Shown here piece by piece: positions 1-7,828 of a stretch of 64,000 nucleotides of DNA (position 1 is its first letter; each line of letters opens with the position of its first letter). The position numbers and the translations under genes were made by a program. Under the pieces are notes generated by a model, which worked only from the letters and a program-made list of their open reading frames with translations, ran no database searches and was not told where the DNA came from. The stretch is from an uncultured Ignavibacteria bacterium (GTDB lineage Bacteria; Zixibacteria; MSB-5A5; JAABVY01), in contig CAZBZV010000001.1 of NCBI GenBank assembly GCA_964496505.1, forward strand, positions 117,209-181,208, written 5' to 3'.

Positions 1-1763
1 GACTTTTAATCATTGCGGATGAGATTTATGAAAAAGTTATTTACGATAATTTCAAGTTTACCTCGATAGCTTCATTGAGCGACAAGATCCGGGAAAAGAC
101 TGTTATTATAAACGGCGTATCCAAATCGTATTCAATGACCGGATGGCGTATCGGCTATGCTGCAGGACCGCGTGAGCTTATATCGGCAATGAATATCGTG
201 CAGTCGCATATGACCTCCAATCCGAATTCTGTAGCGCAGAAGGCGGCGGTTGAGGCATTTTCGGGCAATCAAGCTGCAATCGGACAGATGACCGCGCAGT
301 TCAATTCACGCCGAAATTATATGCTCAATAAGCTTAAGAGAATTCCCAATGTCTCTTGTTATGAGCCGCAGGGGGCATTTTATCTGTTCCCCAATACTTC
401 GGCTTACTACAATACCGAATTCGGCGGCATGAAAATCCGCAACTCATTCGGTCTGTCCTACTATCTTCTCAAAGAAGCGGCGGTGGCTGTGATTCCGGGA
501 AGCGCATTTGGCGCTGACCAGAATATCCGATTGTCGTATGCCACCTCGATGGAAAATATAGAGGAAGGGACTGACAGAATTATCGAGGCTATGGAGAAGT
601 TGAAGGAATCGCCTAAGTACAAAGAAGTGGCCTTGCAGAATGTGATGACCGAGCCGAAGGCAATGACAGATTCCAACCTGGAAATCTCTACCGAGGAGCG
701 CGACGCATTGGTTCAGGAGGCCGAAGCTGCCCTTCCTTATGACAGATATTTCGAATGGAATGCCAATATAAATGGCATCATCATTCAACTGCGCACTAAC
801 GTCCCGCATCTGTATGGTTTCTGGGTGGAGAACTGGTATCCGGCGCAGCTCGAATCCGATCTTGAGCCGCACGGGATTATCTATGCCGTTGACGGCGTCC
901 CCGGAAGAACGCCCTACGCATACTACAACCGTGCCATGAAAACCGCCATCATGTTTAATACGACATATTACGGTCAGGTGCGAAGCTGGGCGCTGGGTAT
1001 GGTTGCCGATTTGAGCGAGCGGCTTCTGGATGTACACGGGATTCGTGCGGCATGTATTGATTATGAGGGCAAAGCAATTGCCTTGATTGGTCCCAAGGGA
1101 CTCAAGCGCGGCTCGACATTTATAAGGCTTCTGGAAGATGATGAATCGAATTTCGTTACGAACGATTTTATCTTCGTGCGTTATCGTGCCGCCGATGCTG
1201 TGGCCGATTCTCCCGAGCGTAAATTCTATTTCAAGACCGTGATTGCCAAAGACCATCCTCATTATGAAAGAGTTTTCGACCGCAGTAAATGCGAAAATGT
1301 TGTCACCAAACGTTCCGACTGGACCAACACTGATATAATCAGCGAGGAGCTTCCTCTCGATCTGGGCGAACCATACTGCTACTGGGGCAGCAAAGATTCG
1401 CGAGCGATGGTCGATCCGGCCTGGATTAAGGGGCCGCATAAAGTAGTCAAGCGTTCACGAATAAAGGCGGTGGCTCTTCTTGCAAACGAGCCCAATGCTC
1501 CGGCGGTGGAGAAGCTTTCGCAGGACGATGCACTGGATTATATCTCACAGGGCAAGTACCGTCTTCCCAGCGGCGCCGGGATGGGACCTGTAAGGGAACA
1601 GCCCTTCTTCAATCCGTATATGCTGGGCGATCCTGTCGAGCTCGAAGATTTGCAGAGGCGCAATTTCCATCAGTTATTCCGTGTAGCCGATGCGTATAAA
1701 GTCAATATAGCGGCGATTCCCTCGGAGGCGCTTAAGTCGCGTGTCAAAGAGTTGATCGGGTAG
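1..1763 (+). CDS. 5'-partial class I/II (AspC-like) aminotransferase fused in-frame to a ~370-aa C-terminal domain carrying a degenerate P-loop (GPKGLKRGST...LLEDDE) reminiscent of HPrK/PEPCK-fold kinases
   Basis: Frame-3 ORF is open from window edge. N-part has the ADEIY and KSYSMTGWRIGY (PLP-Lys) aminotransferase motifs and ends ~pos 600. The ORF continues without a stop through ~370 aa with an 'AIALIGPKGLKRGSTFIRLLEDDESNFVTNDFIFV' block that aligns to the HPrK Walker-A/'RLVADD' region. Confidence 0.75.
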   Translation, partial: LLIIADEIYEKVIYDNFKFTSIASLSDKIREKTVIINGVSKSYSMTGWRIGYAAGPRELISAMNIVQSHMTSNPNSVAQKAAVEAFSGNQAAIGQMTAQFNSRRNYMLNKLKRIPNVSCYEPQGAFYLFPNTSAYYNTEFGGMKIRNSFGLSYYLLKEAAVAVIPGSAFGADQNIRLSYATSMENIEEGTDRIIEAMEKLKESPKYKEVALQNVMTEPKAMTDSNLEISTEERDALVQEAEAALPYDRYFEWNANINGIIIQLRTNVPHLYGFWVENWYPAQLESDLEPHGIIYAVDGVPGRTPYAYYNRAMKTAIMFNTTYYGQVRSWALGMVADLSERLLDVHGIRAACIDYEGKAIALIGPKGLKRGSTFIRLLEDDESNFVTNDFIFVRYRAADAVADSPERKFYFKTVIAKDHPHYERVFDRSKCENVVTKRSDWTNTDIISEELPLDLGEPYCYWGSKDSRAMVDPAWIKGPHKVVKRSRIKAVALLANEPNAPAVEKLSQDDALDYISQGKYRLPSGAGMGPVREQPFFNPYMLGDPVELEDLQRRNFHQLFRVADAYKVNIAAIPSEALKSRVKELIG

Positions 1764-1774
1764 GAGGAAAGATT

Positions 1775-2200
1775 ATGGCGAATACACTTGGAATCGTTAA
1801 GCCCGACGGCGTCAAACGCAAGCTGGTTGGAAATGTTATTTCCAGGATAGAAAAGGCTGATCTGGTTTTACGCGGTATGAAAGTCCTGAAGCTATCAAAA
1901 GATCAGGCGCAGAAGTTTTATGCGGTTCATGAGGGTAAGCCGTTTTATAATTCACTGGTGGAATTCATGACCTCCGGGCCAATCGTTGTGATGGTAATTG
2001 GCGGACATGATTCGATTAGGAGATGGCGTGACCTGATGGGTGCCACCGATCCGGCTAAGGCAAAGTATAACACAATCCGGCGCGAATATGGAACATCGGT
2101 CGAGAAAAATGTCGTCCATGGCTCAGATAGCGAGGTTACCTCTAAAGCCGAGGTATCGTTCTTTTTCAATGATGATGAAATTCTTCCCAAGGGGATTTAA
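1775..2200 (+). CDS. ndk: nucleoside diphosphate kinase
   Basis: 141 aa; IVKPDGV, YxxHxGKPFY, MTSGPIVVMV and NxxHGSDS motifs typical of Ndk; RBS GGAGGAAAG upstream. Confidence 0.95.
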   Translation: MANTLGIVKPDGVKRKLVGNVISRIEKADLVLRGMKVLKLSKDQAQKFYAVHEGKPFYNSLVEFMTSGPIVVMVIGGHDSIRRWRDLMGATDPAKAKYNTIRREYGTSVEKNVVHGSDSEVTSKAEVSFFFNDDEILPKGI

Positions 2201-2202
2201 AA

Positions 2203-4059
2203 ATGTCCGATTCTCTCTATGACATGAATTACTACAGCCGTTTCAATCGCGACCTTCAAAGGCGCTTGAACAGTCCCAATATAAAAGAAGTAAAGCTGAG
2301 TGACATGAAGGAGCCGTCCTATCAAACCGGACAGCGCACGAAGTACGGTTCATGGGGATGGCGTTCTGCAGTGTCCAGCAGAATCGGCGGCAAGACGGTT
2401 TATCTTGGATCAGAGAAATGCCGTGAATATCATCTGACAGACGGCAAGAAACAGATTATCCGCAATGCCCCCGAAGAGCTTGATAAGGTTTTGCATTTGA
2501 TGGAAACCTTGCCTATTGTCAAACTGCGCCGTCAGATGGGCGAGAATCCGGAGTTCAATCCTAAATGCAATTTGTATATGTCCATGGCCGATCCCAAGAA
2601 TGCGCGTAACGCTCTGATGTGGGGACATACTATGGGCAAACCGACCAATGCACCCGGCCCGGAATTTACCCTGATACATATCCCGGAAGAACATCATATC
2701 CGCCAGCAGGTGCTGATGCTGCCCGATTATAATACCACGATAGTACTTGGCTCGGATTATATGGGTGAGGACAAGAAGGGATTTCTGCGCAATGGCATGT
2801 ATTCAGCCGACAAGCTTAATATGCTGGGGCTTCATGCCGGTACCAAGGTTGTGATTATCCAGGATAAAAAGAGCGGCAAACTGAAAAAATACGGTGTGCT
2901 TCTTTTTGGTCTTTCTGCTACCGGCAAAAGCACCTGGTCATGCCATCAGCTTGGCCTCGACTGGAAGAAAGACGAGCGCACTCTTGTATGCCAGGACGAT
3001 ATCTGCTTTTTGAAGAATGACGGTTCCGCATACGGCTCCGAGCAGAATTATTTCGTCAAGACCGATGTCGATAAAAAGCTTCAGGAGTCGATGTATAATG
3101 CGCTGGTGCATAAGAGTGCGATGTATGAAAATGTCATGATCGACTCTGCCGGCAATCCGCAGTTTCTGGATGAGAATCTTTGCGGCAATGGCCGCGCGGT
3201 TATTATGCGCAAGCAGTTGAAGATCAAACGCGGTCACTGGCCGTTTGCGATGAAAGATATCTGGTATCCGACTTTAAATCTTCCGCCGGTAGAGGAGCTT
3301 GACGGGATAGTTTTTGCCTTTATTACAAGGCGTAATACGATCATGACCTTCTCGCAGCGCTTGACACCCACTCAGGCGGCACTTGCATATCTCTGGGGCG
3401 AGTCCAGTCACAGCTATGCCTCCAATCCGGCCAAGGCGGGCGAATCGGTTCGTACGGTGGGGACTGATCCGTTTATCGTGGGATCGCGCGCCGCCAAAGT
3501 GAATATGTTTTACAATATCGTTATGGACCTCGCCAACAGCTATCCTGACAAGGTTCATTTCTATCAGTACAACACCGGCGGTATGGGCGAGATTATCGAT
3601 AAGGACAGAGACGGCAACAAGAATATGATTCGCAAAACAGAGCGTGTGCCGATCGATACGATGGCTGCAATACAGCGCGGCGATTTGCGCGGCACCAATG
3701 AATACCGTCCCAGCCTTTTCGGCACCGAGGAAATAATTTCAGCCGAGGGCGTTGACCTTAGTATGTATCGTCCCGAGAAATATTACTCGCAGGAGCAGAT
3801 CGATAATTACCTGCGTGATCTGGTAAACGGCCGCCGCAAGTTTACCGAGAATGTTGCGGAGGAGGGTTTGATGCCGGAGATAATAAGAGCAGCCGAGGTA
3901 TCATACAGCATCGCGCCCGATTCCGGTACGACTGTTTCGATGGCAACTATAAGACAGAAGGAGGAGCCGCCTCCTCCCAAAGAAAAGCCGGTGACAAAGC
4001 TGACCGACTGGAAACCGAATCCGCGTCTTGCGCGCGACCGCGGCTGGCGATATGGTTGA
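2203..4059 (+). CDS. pckA: phosphoenolpyruvate carboxykinase (ATP)-like protein, divergent with extended termini
   Basis: The block 'GSDYMGEDKKG...LHAGTKVV...FGLSATGKST...CQDDICF...NYFVKT...GNGRAVIM' parallels E. coli PckA 'GTWYGGEMKKG...H...FGLSGTGKTTLS...IGDDEHGW...CYAKT...ENTRVSYP'. Catalytic Lys/His/Lys/Asp/Arg equivalents are present. Confidence 0.8.
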   Translation: MSDSLYDMNYYSRFNRDLQRRLNSPNIKEVKLSDMKEPSYQTGQRTKYGSWGWRSAVSSRIGGKTVYLGSEKCREYHLTDGKKQIIRNAPEELDKVLHLMETLPIVKLRRQMGENPEFNPKCNLYMSMADPKNARNALMWGHTMGKPTNAPGPEFTLIHIPEEHHIRQQVLMLPDYNTTIVLGSDYMGEDKKGFLRNGMYSADKLNMLGLHAGTKVVIIQDKKSGKLKKYGVLLFGLSATGKSTWSCHQLGLDWKKDERTLVCQDDICFLKNDGSAYGSEQNYFVKTDVDKKLQESMYNALVHKSAMYENVMIDSAGNPQFLDENLCGNGRAVIMRKQLKIKRGHWPFAMKDIWYPTLNLPPVEELDGIVFAFITRRNTIMTFSQRLTPTQAALAYLWGESSHSYASNPAKAGESVRTVGTDPFIVGSRAAKVNMFYNIVMDLANSYPDKVHFYQYNTGGMGEIIDKDRDGNKNMIRKTERVPIDTMAAIQRGDLRGTNEYRPSLFGTEEIISAEGVDLSMYRPEKYYSQEQIDNYLRDLVNGRRKFTENVAEEGLMPEIIRAAEVSYSIAPDSGTTVSMATIRQKEEPPPPKEKPVTKLTDWKPNPRLARDRGWRYG

Positions 4060-4119: not shown

Positions 4120-4144
4120 GTAGAGGATGGATTGATTAAAATGT

Positions 4145-4158
4145 AGCCCACCTGAAAG
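4145..4158. repeat. 14-bp direct repeat agcccacctgaaag (copy 1 of 2)
   Basis: Exact 14-mer recurs at 4861..4874; each copy lies ~200/45 bp upstream of a 76-bp palindromic element. Confidence 0.6.
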
Positions 4159-4274
4159 ATGGGGAGCAGCCAACATTCACCTGCTGTGTTTCTTTTCAAA
4201 ATCGGACGTAGCAGTTGAAAAATATTATGCCCGCCCGTTGGGTGGGATACAAAAGGTACAAAATGATTTCCCAG

Positions 4275-4355
4275 GGTGACCCAATCTTTAGATTGGGTAA
4301 GGGCTTTCGCCATATGAATATTCCTCCCAAGCTGAAGCTTGGTGCACCCGGGCAA
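4275..4355. repeat. ~80-bp hairpin-pair dispersed repeat (ggtgacccaatcttYagattggg ... cccaagctgaagcttggYRcacccRggcaa), copy 1
   Basis: Two short perfect hairpins ~40 bp apart; same two-hairpin unit recurs at 7491..7571; second hairpin recurs inverted at 45981..46005. Confidence 0.75.
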
Positions 4356-4363
4356 ACTTATCC

Positions 4364-4439
4364 TGTCATTCTGAGCGTAGTGAAGAATCTTTTTGAATCG
4401 TGCGAGATTCTTCGGTCGTTTCACTCCCTTAGAATGACA
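4364..4439. repeat. 76-bp imperfect palindromic element with 12-bp terminal inverted repeats tgtcattctgag/cttagaatgaca (copy 1)
   Basis: Second copy ~85% identical at 4905..4980. Internal gaatct/agattc and gtgaa/ttcac pairings give a long bulged hairpin/cruciform. Confidence 0.8.
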
Positions 4440-4458: not shown

Positions 4459-4851
4459 ATGATCAGGTTCGAATTTACAGTTGAGGGGACGCCGATCTCG
4501 CAACAGGCCAAAAAGCGGCGCGTTCTTAATCAATGGAAGGCACAGGTGCGCAACACTGCACGCAAGTACTGGCCTCATAAACAGCCCCCGACCAGGGATC
4601 AGATTCGTATGACCCTGACGTATTTTTATAAATTCGAAGCTCTGGATGTTGACAATATGATCAAGCCGATTCAGGATGCCTTGATCGGACTGGTCTATAA
4701 TGATGATAAGCAGATCACCGATGTTTACAGCCGCAAGCGCAAACTTAATACGAGCTTTCGTTTGTTGAACGTCTCGCCGGCAATTGCACGCGGACTTGCC
4801 AGTGGCCGGGAGTTTTTGCATGTGCTGATCGAAGATGCAAGGATGGTATAA
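4459..4851 (+). CDS. rusA: RusA-family Holliday junction resolvase (endodeoxyribonuclease RusA)
   Basis: 130 aa; 'DVDNMIKPIQDALIGLVYNDDKQI' matches the RusA catalytic D-x-DN...DAL...Y-DD-Q signature. No SD; ATG immediately follows TATAAAAT (possible leaderless transcript). Confidence 0.8.
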   Translation: MIRFEFTVEGTPISQQAKKRRVLNQWKAQVRNTARKYWPHKQPPTRDQIRMTLTYFYKFEALDVDNMIKPIQDALIGLVYNDDKQITDVYSRKRKLNTSFRLLNVSPAIARGLASGREFLHVLIEDARMV

Positions 4852-4860
4852 AATAATTGC

Positions 4861-4874
4861 AGCCCACCTGAAAG
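4861..4874. repeat. 14-bp direct repeat agcccacctgaaag (copy 2)
   Basis: Identical to 4145..4158. Confidence 0.6.
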
Positions 4875-4904
4875 GGCTTGTTGGAAAAGTATGTTGATTT
4901 AATC

Positions 4905-4980
4905 TGTCATTCTGAGCGAAGCGAAGAATCTGCATGATTCGTGAAAGATTCTTCGGTCGTTTCACTCACTCAGAATGACA
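4905..4980. repeat. 76-bp imperfect palindromic element (copy 2), TIRs tgtcattctgag/ctcagaatgaca
   Basis: Near-identical to 4364..4439; the two copies bracket rusA. Confidence 0.8.
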
Positions 4981-5004
4981 GTACAAGGGCATTTTAAAAA
5001 ATAT

Positions 5005-5664
5005 ATGGCGCAGCGAAAAACAGACAGAGAACGCAAACGGATCACCGCAATCGCGCGGGAGTATGCCGAGAAGGGGTATGATGTTAATGTCAGCCCGAAT
5101 CGTGATGAGCTCCCGGAATTTCTGCAGAACTTCCGTCCTGATATCGTTGCCACAAGCTACAACGAAAATGTTGTGGTGGAGGTCAAGGCGGGAAAGAATC
5201 TGGTCAAGTCGCCATATCTTCCCAAGCTGGCCAAGGCTATCGAGGAAAACGAGTGCTGGCGTTTCGAGATGGTGGTCACCAATCCGCGCCGCAAGAATGA
5301 ACCGATTGAAGATGATATCGATGTCCTGAATAAAGGGGATATCATAAAGCGTATCGATGAGATAAAACATCTTCTGGAAATAGGGCAGATCGAGGCGGCG
5401 ATTCTTTTGGGATGGTCGGCAATCGAGGGCACGCTCAGGCTTCTGGCAAAAAAAGAAAGAGTTAAGATAAAGCGACGGACGCCCTCATACGTGGCTAAAA
5501 AGATGCTCAACCTGGGAATCATCACTCAGGAGGATCATGACATCCTTCATGACGCCATCGAACTCCGCAACGCAGTTATCCACGGCTACAAAACGGCCCA
5601 GGCCGATTCGGGTGTGGTGGTGGATATGCTGGCGATAGTGGAAAAATTATTGACAGATTTATAA
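5005..5664 (+). CDS. fusion protein: N-terminal Hjc/AHJR-like PD-(D/E)xK nuclease-fold domain + C-terminal HEPN domain (Rx4HxY)
   Basis: N-part 'ERKRITAIAREYAEKGYDV...RPDIVATSYNENVVVEVKAGKN' matches the E...G+xV...PDIxA...EVK pattern of archaeal Hjc/restriction-endonuclease fold. C-part 'IELRNAVIHGY' is a canonical HEPN R-x4-H-x-Y motif. Start moved to ATG 5005 because 4975 lies inside the palindromic repeat. Confidence 0.6.
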   Translation: MAQRKTDRERKRITAIAREYAEKGYDVNVSPNRDELPEFLQNFRPDIVATSYNENVVVEVKAGKNLVKSPYLPKLAKAIEENECWRFEMVVTNPRRKNEPIEDDIDVLNKGDIIKRIDEIKHLLEIGQIEAAILLGWSAIEGTLRLLAKKERVKIKRRTPSYVAKKMLNLGIITQEDHDILHDAIELRNAVIHGYKTAQADSGVVVDMLAIVEKLLTDL

Positions 5665-5948
5665 AACTGCTGGCAAAAGCCTGAACAATTTACATGCAGT
5701 ACAAAATAACCTTATGAGACGCAGTTCATTCCGAATCCGTCCTGGGCAATTCTAATCTCTAACGGTAATCAGACTCTCTCTTATATGAGTCAGTTCTCCT
5801 AAAGTGATTATTGGATCCGGTCGATGAATTAAGGGTGAAAATAAATGCTGGAGATATTTGTTGGAGCAAATGTCTTCCGTTATCATCCTCTGTAGTGACA
5901 CCGCGGAAAAAATCATAGAATAAAAAATAAGTAGGGAAAGAGGTTTTT

Positions 5949-6218
5949 ATGGCTCTATCAAGATGTCTCGAGCGGCACTCGCCGCCCAAAAGCAATCGAT
6001 ATGTTTCTTATGCGTTTCCATTAGGCTATCCAAACTCATCGACAATCTGTGGAAATCCAAACTGTCAAAATCCCGGAGTCATATGGCTAAAGAGAGATGA
6101 GAAGGGCAAGTACCAAAATGGAATGAGGTTCTTTTCATACGATTCGCATGTTGCCAGTGTAAGAGTAGGTGACCAAAATATAAAGACACTTCAGACTAGA
6201 ATAGATAACGAATCTTGA
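5949..6218 (+). CDS. hypothetical small Cys-containing protein (possible zinc ribbon: C..H / CGNPNCQNPG)
   Basis: 89-aa ORF with good SD (GGAAAGAGG, 8 nt upstream); no recognisable family. Confidence 0.35.
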   Translation: MALSRCLERHSPPKSNRYVSYAFPLGYPNSSTICGNPNCQNPGVIWLKRDEKGKYQNGMRFFSYDSHVASVRVGDQNIKTLQTRIDNES

Positions 6219-6231
6219 GAGGAGGAAAAAA

Positions 6232-7164
6232 ATGGGAGGCGTCAGACTGATGAAATCCATAGTTTTAGGATTTTTATTATTATTTACGCTCAGTGTGGCC
6301 TGTAGCCTGAGCAAAGAGGAAGCCGAGGCCAGAGAAGCCGCACGGCAAGTTAGAGTGTTTTTTGATAACATTTTGCAGAAGGGCGACTTGAAAACTGCTT
6401 ATGGAATGCTTTCGGCAGATACAAGGGTGACATGGCTTATGTATGGCGGAGAATACTATAATTCAATTGTTACAGCTGTTATAAGGGATGATAGCGAAAC
6501 CCTGCCGGATAACGTTAAACTCATTAGGGAAGCAGTCGCTGAATTTACCCCCGTACCTATGAACTTGATTCGTTATGAAATTGGTAATCCGAAATATTTT
6601 AATGATTCTGCCATAGTGCCCATAACTTTTTGTGTCGCTTCGGTACCTGAATTAGACCAACTTTTTGATTCATTTATAGAGATGGTCGAAAATAACAATT
6701 TTAATGATATGACTTACAATATGAAAAAGGAGACGATTGTATGGACAGCCCAAAAAATTAAAAGTGCCGTTAAGGACAAAACCTTTGAAATGCAGGTAAA
6801 AGCTAGAGATATAACATTAATCAAAGAAAATGGAAAATGGAAACTATCACTCGCTGAAAGCCCTGAAACTGCGTTAAAACAGAACAAGACCGAAGAAGCC
6901 CAGCTTGTCTTAAAGCAGATCTATATAATGCAGCGCACATACAGAAAGCAGTTTGATACCTATTCGGAAGATTTGATGGCTTTAGGTGTTGAAATTCCCT
7001 GGAACGCCCGGTATGATTATTCAATAGTCTCGTTTGACTCTACCACATTCGTGGCTCAGGCACATTTGTCTTCTCCGGGTGTCGACGATGACCCCACTCC
7101 TGACACCTGGACAATTGATCAAGACGGGAGTATCATGCATGTGTCGAATGATATAACAAACTAA
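6232..7164 (+). CDS. lipoprotein with C-terminal pilin/pseudopilin-like segment
   Basis: Strong SD GAGGAGG. Signal peptide with lipobox LSVAC. C-terminal 'EAQLVLKQIYIMQRTYRKQFDTYSEDLMALGVEIP' resembles the N-terminal helix region of type IV pilin-like/GspG proteins. Confidence 0.55.
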   Translation: MGGVRLMKSIVLGFLLLFTLSVACSLSKEEAEAREAARQVRVFFDNILQKGDLKTAYGMLSADTRVTWLMYGGEYYNSIVTAVIRDDSETLPDNVKLIREAVAEFTPVPMNLIRYEIGNPKYFNDSAIVPITFCVASVPELDQLFDSFIEMVENNNFNDMTYNMKKETIVWTAQKIKSAVKDKTFEMQVKARDITLIKENGKWKLSLAESPETALKQNKTEEAQLVLKQIYIMQRTYRKQFDTYSEDLMALGVEIPWNARYDYSIVSFDSTTFVAQAHLSSPGVDDDPTPDTWTIDQDGSIMHVSNDITN

Positions 7165-7186
7165 ATAGTGGGCATTTACATTGGTA

Positions 7187-7220
7187 AGGTGTTGGCAAGA
7201 AAAGAGTCAACACCTTTCTT
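7187..7220 (+). terminator. bidirectional stem-loop terminator (ggtgttg...caacacc + TTTCTTATTT)
   Basis: 7-bp stem, 13-nt loop, T-rich tail on + strand; sits between converging lipoprotein gene and small minus-strand ORF. Confidence 0.5.
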
Positions 7221-7315
7221 ATTTCCAATAGTATTACCATTTATAATATTTAACATTATCAAAATCACCGAAAGATCTACCGCTTGATGCTCTTCTCGAC
7301 ATCGCCCAGCATCTC

Positions 7316-7390
7316 TAAAAGATTGGCAGCGACAAAGCCCGCAATTGCGAGCGCAACCATAATAATGATTATTATCAGAACGACATTCAT
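7316..7390 (-). CDS. candidate 24-aa hydrophobic peptide MNVVLIIIIIMVALAIAGFVAANL
   Basis: Hand translation of minus strand; near-consensus SD AGGAGGGG 6 nt upstream of ATG. Entirely hydrophobic single helix; below ORF-track size cutoff. Confidence 0.25.
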
Positions 7391-7490
7391 AGCCCCTCCT
7401 CTAAGGATTTGAATTTAAACTAACATTTTTGTATGGAGAGGTCAAGATTAAACAACGGGAGAGATTTTTGGGGGTGGCAAATAATCTCAA

Positions 7491-7571
7491 GGTGACCCAA
7501 TCTTCAGATTGGGAAGTTATTTTAATAAGCAAACCATTTATCCCAAGCTGAAGCTTGGCACACCCAGGCAA
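7491..7571. repeat. ~80-bp hairpin-pair dispersed repeat, copy 2
   Basis: ggtgacccaatcttcagattggg ... cccaagctgaagcttggcacacccaggcaa; matches 4275..4355 block-for-block. Confidence 0.75.
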
Positions 7572-7584
7572 TGACAGGGTGGCA

Positions 7585-7646
7585 CGCCCAAACTGGCTTT
7601 GGGCGGGTAGAAAATATTTAACCTGCCCAAACGAAGTTTGAGCAGG
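7585..7646. repeat. two further small palindromes (cgcccaaactggctttgggcg; cctgcccaaacgaagtttgagcagg)
   Basis: Same cccaaa/tttggg-type stem design as the neighbouring repeat family. Confidence 0.5.
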
Positions 7647-7828
7647 CCACCCGGATGATGCTTTCGGCCGATTATCCTTGAAATGACATTTTATAGCGGT
7701 AGGGCAGAATCCAAGCGAATCGCAGTGATCAAATTTTCAATACCAAAAAAATAGTCAGAACCACTTCGTTTTACTTAGGGTTCTGACCTACTCTTTTCTT
7801 CATAATATGTTGTGCTTTAATTCGATTC

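Follow-up and report, generated by a model that had tools for sequence, protein, structure and literature searches.

Genes and repeats at the locus

The window, by which we mean the whole 64,000-nt stretch of DNA that was analysed, holds a gene for a two-domain protein, here called AHJR-HEPN, downstream of a rusA gene, with a copy of a hairpin repeat before each of the two. The features of the locus are as follows:

4269..4355, no strand: one copy of a second short repeat family (other copy, 7485-7571); intergenic, bracketing the region and outside the conserved module
4358..4439, no strand: copy 1 of the 82-nt hairpin repeat, a short distance upstream of rusA (dG -29.6, folding z -5.2)
4459..4851, + strand: rusA, encoding a junction endonuclease of the RusA family (130 aa); upstream partner
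4899..4980, no strand: copy 2 of the 82-nt hairpin repeat, after the stop of rusA and before the start of AHJR-HEPN (dG -34.3, folding z -5.8)
5005..5664, + strand: AHJR-HEPN gene, 219 aa plus stop, assigned by homology, Pfam and AlphaFold2
5005..5283, + strand: AHJR-like PD-(D/E)xK nuclease domain, residues 1-93, with catalytic candidates E19, D46, E59 and K61
5284..5316, + strand: inter-domain linker, residues 94-104, with pLDDT <50 and a length that varies in the alignment
5317..5661, + strand: HEPN domain, residues 105-219, with R188-x4-H193-G-Y195 at 5566-5589
5665..7828, no strand: variable stretch separating the module from the syntenic GNAT gene, holding ORFs at 5949-6218 and 6232-7164

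The AHJR-HEPN gene is contained in an open reading frame at 4975-5664 on the + strand. In databases it is recorded as a 229-aa protein called from ATG 4975, with no exact record of the 219-aa sequence. Sequence comparison places the true start at ATG 5005, as the preliminary description of this DNA had it, because the Pfam AHJR-like alignment starts there and because relatives at 80–82% identity begin with the same MAQ(H/R)KTD; homology to L001 and L004 fixes it. The upstream ATG is spurious since it lies inside the 82-nt repeat at 4899-4980.

The AHJR-HEPN protein

ORF 5005-5664 is a genuine gene in which a DNA-nuclease domain is fused to a HEPN RNase domain, both activities being predicted. 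From the letters, an Hjc-like PD-(D/E)xK domain joined to a HEPN domain bearing an R-x4-H motif had been proposed; every motif quoted then is present, and the fusion was confirmed by the Pfam AHJR-like match and by an AlphaFold2 model (mean pLDDT 86) with two domains and a disordered linker between them.

The N-terminal half matched Pfam PF18743 (AHJR-like) at E = 7.4e-31 and 106.7 bits, against a cut-off of 26.1, over profile positions 1-119 of 123. It contains E19, G24-Y25-x-V27, P45-D46-I-V-A49 and E59-V-K61, with the PD...EVK motif at 5137-5187, and has all the marks of PD-(D/E)xK membership: the alpha-beta-beta-beta-alpha-beta core, the D...(D/E)xK residues and the Hjc-type glutamate in helix 1. 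E59 is replaced by Ala throughout the Microcoleus clade, and DNA-cleaving activity is therefore not required universally. Profile similarity to archaeal resolvases was weak (Pfam Hjc, E = 0.14; ST1444, E = 0.095), and sequence searches of solved structures, with a single sequence and with a profile, gave only E = 0.07–0.4. Because those searches were uninformative, a fold comparison was needed. The archaeal Hjc/Hje enzymes (PDB 1gef, 1ob8, 2wiz, 4tkd) are stand-alone proteins, whereas AHJR-HEPN is bacterial and fused to HEPN.

The C-terminal half folds in the model as the four-helix up-down bundle of the HEPN superfamily, with conserved E141 and R145 in its second helix (model residues 129-150) and E186-L-R188-N-A-V-I-H193-G-Y195 at 5560-5589. 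R188-NAVI-H193 fits the HEPN R-x4-6-H pattern, whose R and H are each kept in 85 of 88 family members, and this RNase motif is the best-conserved feature of the family. Matches to HepT models were sub-threshold (Pfam PF01934 HepT-like, E = 5.9e-4, 20.0 bits against a cut-off of 23.5; NCBIfam HepT_toxin, 16.4 bits against 60). The HEPN half is thus HepT-type by fold, yet outside HepT-like at the sequence level, and the profile matches anticipated for both halves held above the cut-off for the AHJR-like domain and fell short of it for the HEPN domain. The preliminary description also cited the motif as R-x4-H-x-Y. The tyrosine, Y195, is indeed present two residues after the catalytic His, at the position AMPylated in HepT, but it is atypical: 70/88 members have Phe there and 10/88 have Tyr.

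The preliminary description had named two outcomes as counting against it, a lack of profile matches and the absence or pseudogenisation of the ORF in relatives with the repeats intact; neither was found.

Family membership

The fusion of an AHJR-like domain to a DUF86-type HEPN domain was listed in 2013 by Anantharaman et al. (Table 1, PMC3710099). The window protein shares this architecture and is a member of that catalogued family, which is known only computationally. We found 45 close homologues and, more widely, 958, 2324 and 3476 clusters at E ≤ 1e-30, 1e-10 and 1e-3, nearly all of about 220 aa. The view that such an architecture is unusual does not hold for a family of this size catalogued in 2013. 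The 2013 listing gives the fusion without RusA or an operon: "RusA" occurs nowhere in PMC3710099, and no conserved operon is mentioned there.

A conserved operon with rusA

The product of 4459-4851 matched Pfam RusA at E = 3.4e-10 (41.0 bits, cut-off 22.8). It belongs to the same family as RusA of E. coli DLP12 and phage 82, whose D70, D72, K76 and D91 are kept in the partner. Among the partner RusAs, D70, D72 and K76 (E. coli numbering) were present in 77/77 and D91 in 74 of the 75 aligned. Compared with E. coli RusA, they form a distinct subfamily with an insertion in the C-terminal part and are always linked to the AHJR-HEPN gene. We read the partner as a divergent, non-phage subfamily predicted from its residues to be catalytically intact.

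RusA was encoded immediately upstream in nearly all of the approximately 90 loci examined; by ORF clustering, rusA lay directly upstream in 69/79 genome loci, and most of the others had decayed copies. Most often the rusA stop overlapped the start of its partner, with a 4-nt overlap in 46 loci and a 1-nt overlap in 15, and the module measured about 1.06–1.10 kb in most. Hosts of the pair included Zixibacteria, Ignavibacteria, Cyanobacteria, Chloroflexi and alphaproteobacterial plasmids (at least five phyla), the plasmids being those of Rhizobium, Agrobacterium and Azospirillum, and the pair was also found in the distant homologue loci L088-L090. Searching in the reciprocal direction, from RusA, recovered the partner in 6/6 plasmid records with this RusA subfamily, and RusA-first look-ups found an AHJR-like gene directly downstream in 3/3. 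Pairwise identities of RusA and AHJR-HEPN were correlated (r = 0.96 overall, r = 0.84 for distant pairs), and catalytic residues were conserved in RusA and in both AHJR-HEPN domains. On this comparative evidence, rusA and AHJR-HEPN form an operon conserved across phyla, normally translationally coupled and co-inherited. The compact two-gene module suggested earlier from the window is thus much better founded than was then supposed.

Loss of rusA and toxin-antitoxin readings

rusA was frameshifted, nonsense-mutated, hit by an insertion or cleanly deleted in L021, L027, L044, L046, L049, L059, L061, L080, L081 and L085-87. This decay or loss occurred independently at least 10 times, each time with the AHJR-HEPN gene intact. 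In the rusA-defective loci the HEPN gene keeps D46, K61, R188 and H193, and L021 and L027 carry E59 → Ala. Purifying selection on AHJR-HEPN continues after rusA loss, so the protein has a function of its own.

The operon resembles MntA-HepT in layout, a small gene overlapping the larger HEPN gene that follows it, and this fits a type II-like toxin-antitoxin system, and HEPN toxins are common (PMC3710099). A classical arrangement, with the HEPN protein as toxin and upstream RusA as neutralising antitoxin, is nevertheless very improbable. A rusA gene that is repeatedly dead or deleted beside an intact HEPN gene is not an indispensable antidote, and the invariant RusA catalytic residues would be unneeded in an antitoxin.

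The roles could also be reversed, with RusA harmful as an unregulated junction or fork nuclease and AHJR-HEPN restraining it or countering its effects. Toxin-first operons exist, and a toxin-first BrnT-BrnA pair (clusters 15 and 11) occurs in these same loci; repeated loss of rusA beside a partner intact under the same constraint is the pattern expected for toxin loss. We nonetheless consider this quite improbable, as an antidote would need no two conserved catalytic sites and the partner, still under purifying selection after rusA is lost, has its own function.

The HepT/MntA toxin-antitoxin pair (type VII; e.g., Shewanella SO_3166/SO_3165, PDB 5yep) differs from the present one in several respects. 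Its partner is an MNT nucleotidyltransferase rather than a RusA nuclease, and no MNT nucleotidyltransferase gene was found in the window or in any locus examined. AHJR-HEPN has an extra N-terminal nuclease domain, the position of the AMPylated Tyr is Phe in most members, and the upstream partner is dispensable.

Hairpin repeats and mobility

In the window the operon is split by a 153-nt spacer with a hairpin repeat, and both genes are intact. The two 82-nt repeats are 85% identical, where none would be expected by chance. Copy 1 is absent at the same position in L001, L004 and L005; copy 2 is shared with L005, the closest relative, and missing from L001 and L004. In these last two, at the same pckA...GNAT-HNH-trpS locus and without the repeats, the rusA stop is followed by 6 nt and then ATG. 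The repeat core was absent from all 103 loci searched. The hairpin repeats are lineage-specific insertions, the other short repeats are likewise confined to this lineage, and we rejected the idea of a repeat-flanked mobile islet, since L001 and L004 keep the pair at the same locus without them. The "repeat-flanked islet with no SD" of the preliminary description is not supported as a sign of mobility, the repeats being these insertions.

Downstream, the spacer to the GNAT gene is about 380 nt in L001 and L004, and the two ORFs it holds in the window had no tblastn match in L001, L004 or L005. We do not claim a target-site duplication at the start-codon insert, the left-flank similarity coming partly from a second repeat (4124-4158 matching 4840-4874). 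The promoter scan gave nothing above chance (4 sites against 3.8 expected).

In Planktothrix, the mcyT-mcyD spacer carries a 1194-bp insertion that holds only rusA and its 227-aa partner and shows presence/absence polymorphism, being carried at one site by 20.6% of filaments (Chen et al. 2016, PMC4766695). The pair is the same one, with rusA first, an Hjc-related partner and an unchanged stop/start position; it was reported there as a neutral insertion polymorphism only, with the HEPN domain and the wider conservation of the pair unrecognised. The Planktothrix pair is polymorphic, while that of the window is fixed at a syntenic site.

Such polymorphism, the compact size and the presence in several phyla and on plasmids would be expected of a selfish, homing-like cassette of about 1.1–1.2 kb in which AHJR cuts empty sites and RusA resolves the intermediates, especially in polyploid filamentous bacteria. 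The 61-nt direct repeats that flank the module in L017 would also fit. No conserved terminal inverted or direct repeats, the ends of a transposon, were found across 59 loci, however; there is a single fixed site per genus, no multi-copy genome was seen among six plasmid records (one place each), and the reading leaves the HEPN RNase without a role. We regard it as improbable. A REP-like palindrome in L033 was, like the repeats of L017, an isolated case.

Phage and defence-database searches

RusA is best known from lambdoid prophages, and the window RusA matches phage RusA families at the profile level (phrog_140, E = 3e-14), which would suit a phage-derived remnant or anti-defence gene, both raised in the preliminary description. 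Against this, searches of 50,697 phage genomes, IMG/VR and PHROGs gave no match to the fusion, the partner RusA had no tblastn match in the same 50,697 phage genomes, and phage genes flanked the pair in none of the loci examined. We give a phage origin or anti-defence role scarcely any credence.

The PADLOC search proposed in the preliminary description gave no match for either protein: in PADLOC-DB v2, AHJR-HEPN reached only RTasHEPN (E = 0.029 over 30 residues) and RusA matched nothing. Neither PADLOC nor the searchable literature describes RusA and AHJR-HEPN as a system, and this counts against a defence-type role.

Genomic neighbourhoods and possible function

Genes for BrnTA, HicAB, PIN-DUF433, YefM-YoeB and MmeI restriction-modification adjoin the pair in 31/79 loci, and in L089, L091 and L105 its neighbours include AbiE, a restriction endonuclease, Vsr-Dcm-NERD and ScoMcrA-HNH. 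The pair occupies one fixed syntenic position beside housekeeping genes in Zixibacteria, in Nostoc (30 loci) and in Microcoleus (18 loci), a pattern that suits vertical inheritance more than it does a mobile defence gene. On pTi CFBP2177 it lies beside imuA/imuB/ligD, and in L106 it directly follows the gene for a DnaE2-like polymerase; these two loci hint at DNA-damage biology.

We give about an even chance to the reading that RusA and AHJR-HEPN constitute a chromosomal or plasmid-borne conflict module, either toxin-antitoxin-like or of an abortive-infection/defence type. It draws on the toxin-antitoxin and restriction-modification neighbours, the patchy spread over several phyla and plasmids, a dN/dS of about 0.34, the Planktothrix polymorphism and the domains themselves, HEPN and REase domains being typical effectors of conflict systems (PMC3710099). 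A toxin or abortive-infection role is a plausible candidate from this context. There is also precedent for a link between HEPN and a resolvase in Lactococcus AbiD1, a HEPN abortive-infection protein tied to a phage RuvC-like resolvase, although AbiD1 belongs to another HEPN family, its resolvase is phage-encoded and outside the operon, and there is no nuclease fusion (PMC3710099). Besides the missing database and literature record, the fixed syntenic sites and the two repair-type neighbourhoods, the sub-threshold HEPN half and the E59 → Ala change of the Microcoleus clade weigh against a conflict module.

In such a module, the AHJR domain would bind or cut branched or foreign DNA, probably when dimerised through HEPN; branched DNA may be the trigger, the HEPN dimer would cleave RNA, and RusA would serve as an accessory nuclease partner and not as an antidote. 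More tentatively, and at somewhat less than even chance, the pair may be an unrecognised, widespread two-gene immune or addiction system spanning at least five phyla and approximately 1,000–3,000 clusters, in which an Hjc-like sensor of branched DNA (e.g., phage recombination or replication intermediates) licenses the HEPN RNase and RusA is a second effector. A unit of about 1.1–1.2 kb is compact enough for cassette movement, as the Planktothrix polymorphism suggests.

The main rival to a conflict module is a DNA-damage role, which we hold to be rather unlikely. The pair would then be an accessory repair or recombination module in which RusA and the Hjc-like domain process Holliday junctions, reversed forks and R-loops, while the HEPN domain removes or cuts the RNA strand or only provides dimerisation and nucleic-acid binding. 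The conserved catalytic residues of both junction-nuclease folds, the fixed sites among housekeeping genes in Zixibacteria, Nostoc and Microcoleus, and the ImuA/ImuB/LigD and DnaE2-like neighbours all favour this. Arguing the other way are the patchy distribution, the lack of the pair downstream of pckA in Zixibacteria whose PckA is 75–82% identical, the independent loss or inactivation of rusA at least 10 times, a dN/dS of about 0.34 that is high for a repair gene, the R-x4-H RNase motif as the best-conserved feature, and flanks rich in toxin-antitoxin and restriction-modification genes. The more distant Zixibacteria reached in a metagenome scan with PckA were without the pair and also without the downstream synteny.

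Implications for the AHJR-HEPN family

To the fusion catalogued in 2013, our comparative work adds that AHJR-HEPN is nearly always paired with a private, non-phage RusA, in a translational coupling that extends across distant phyla and plasmids. Should the pair be a repair accessory, it would couple junction resolution to an RNase in an unusual way. Should it serve in defence or addiction, HEPN systems would gain a new type of partner, a Holliday-junction nuclease taking the place of the nucleotidyltransferase, and the pair would be a candidate link from the sensing of branched DNA to the cleavage of RNA.

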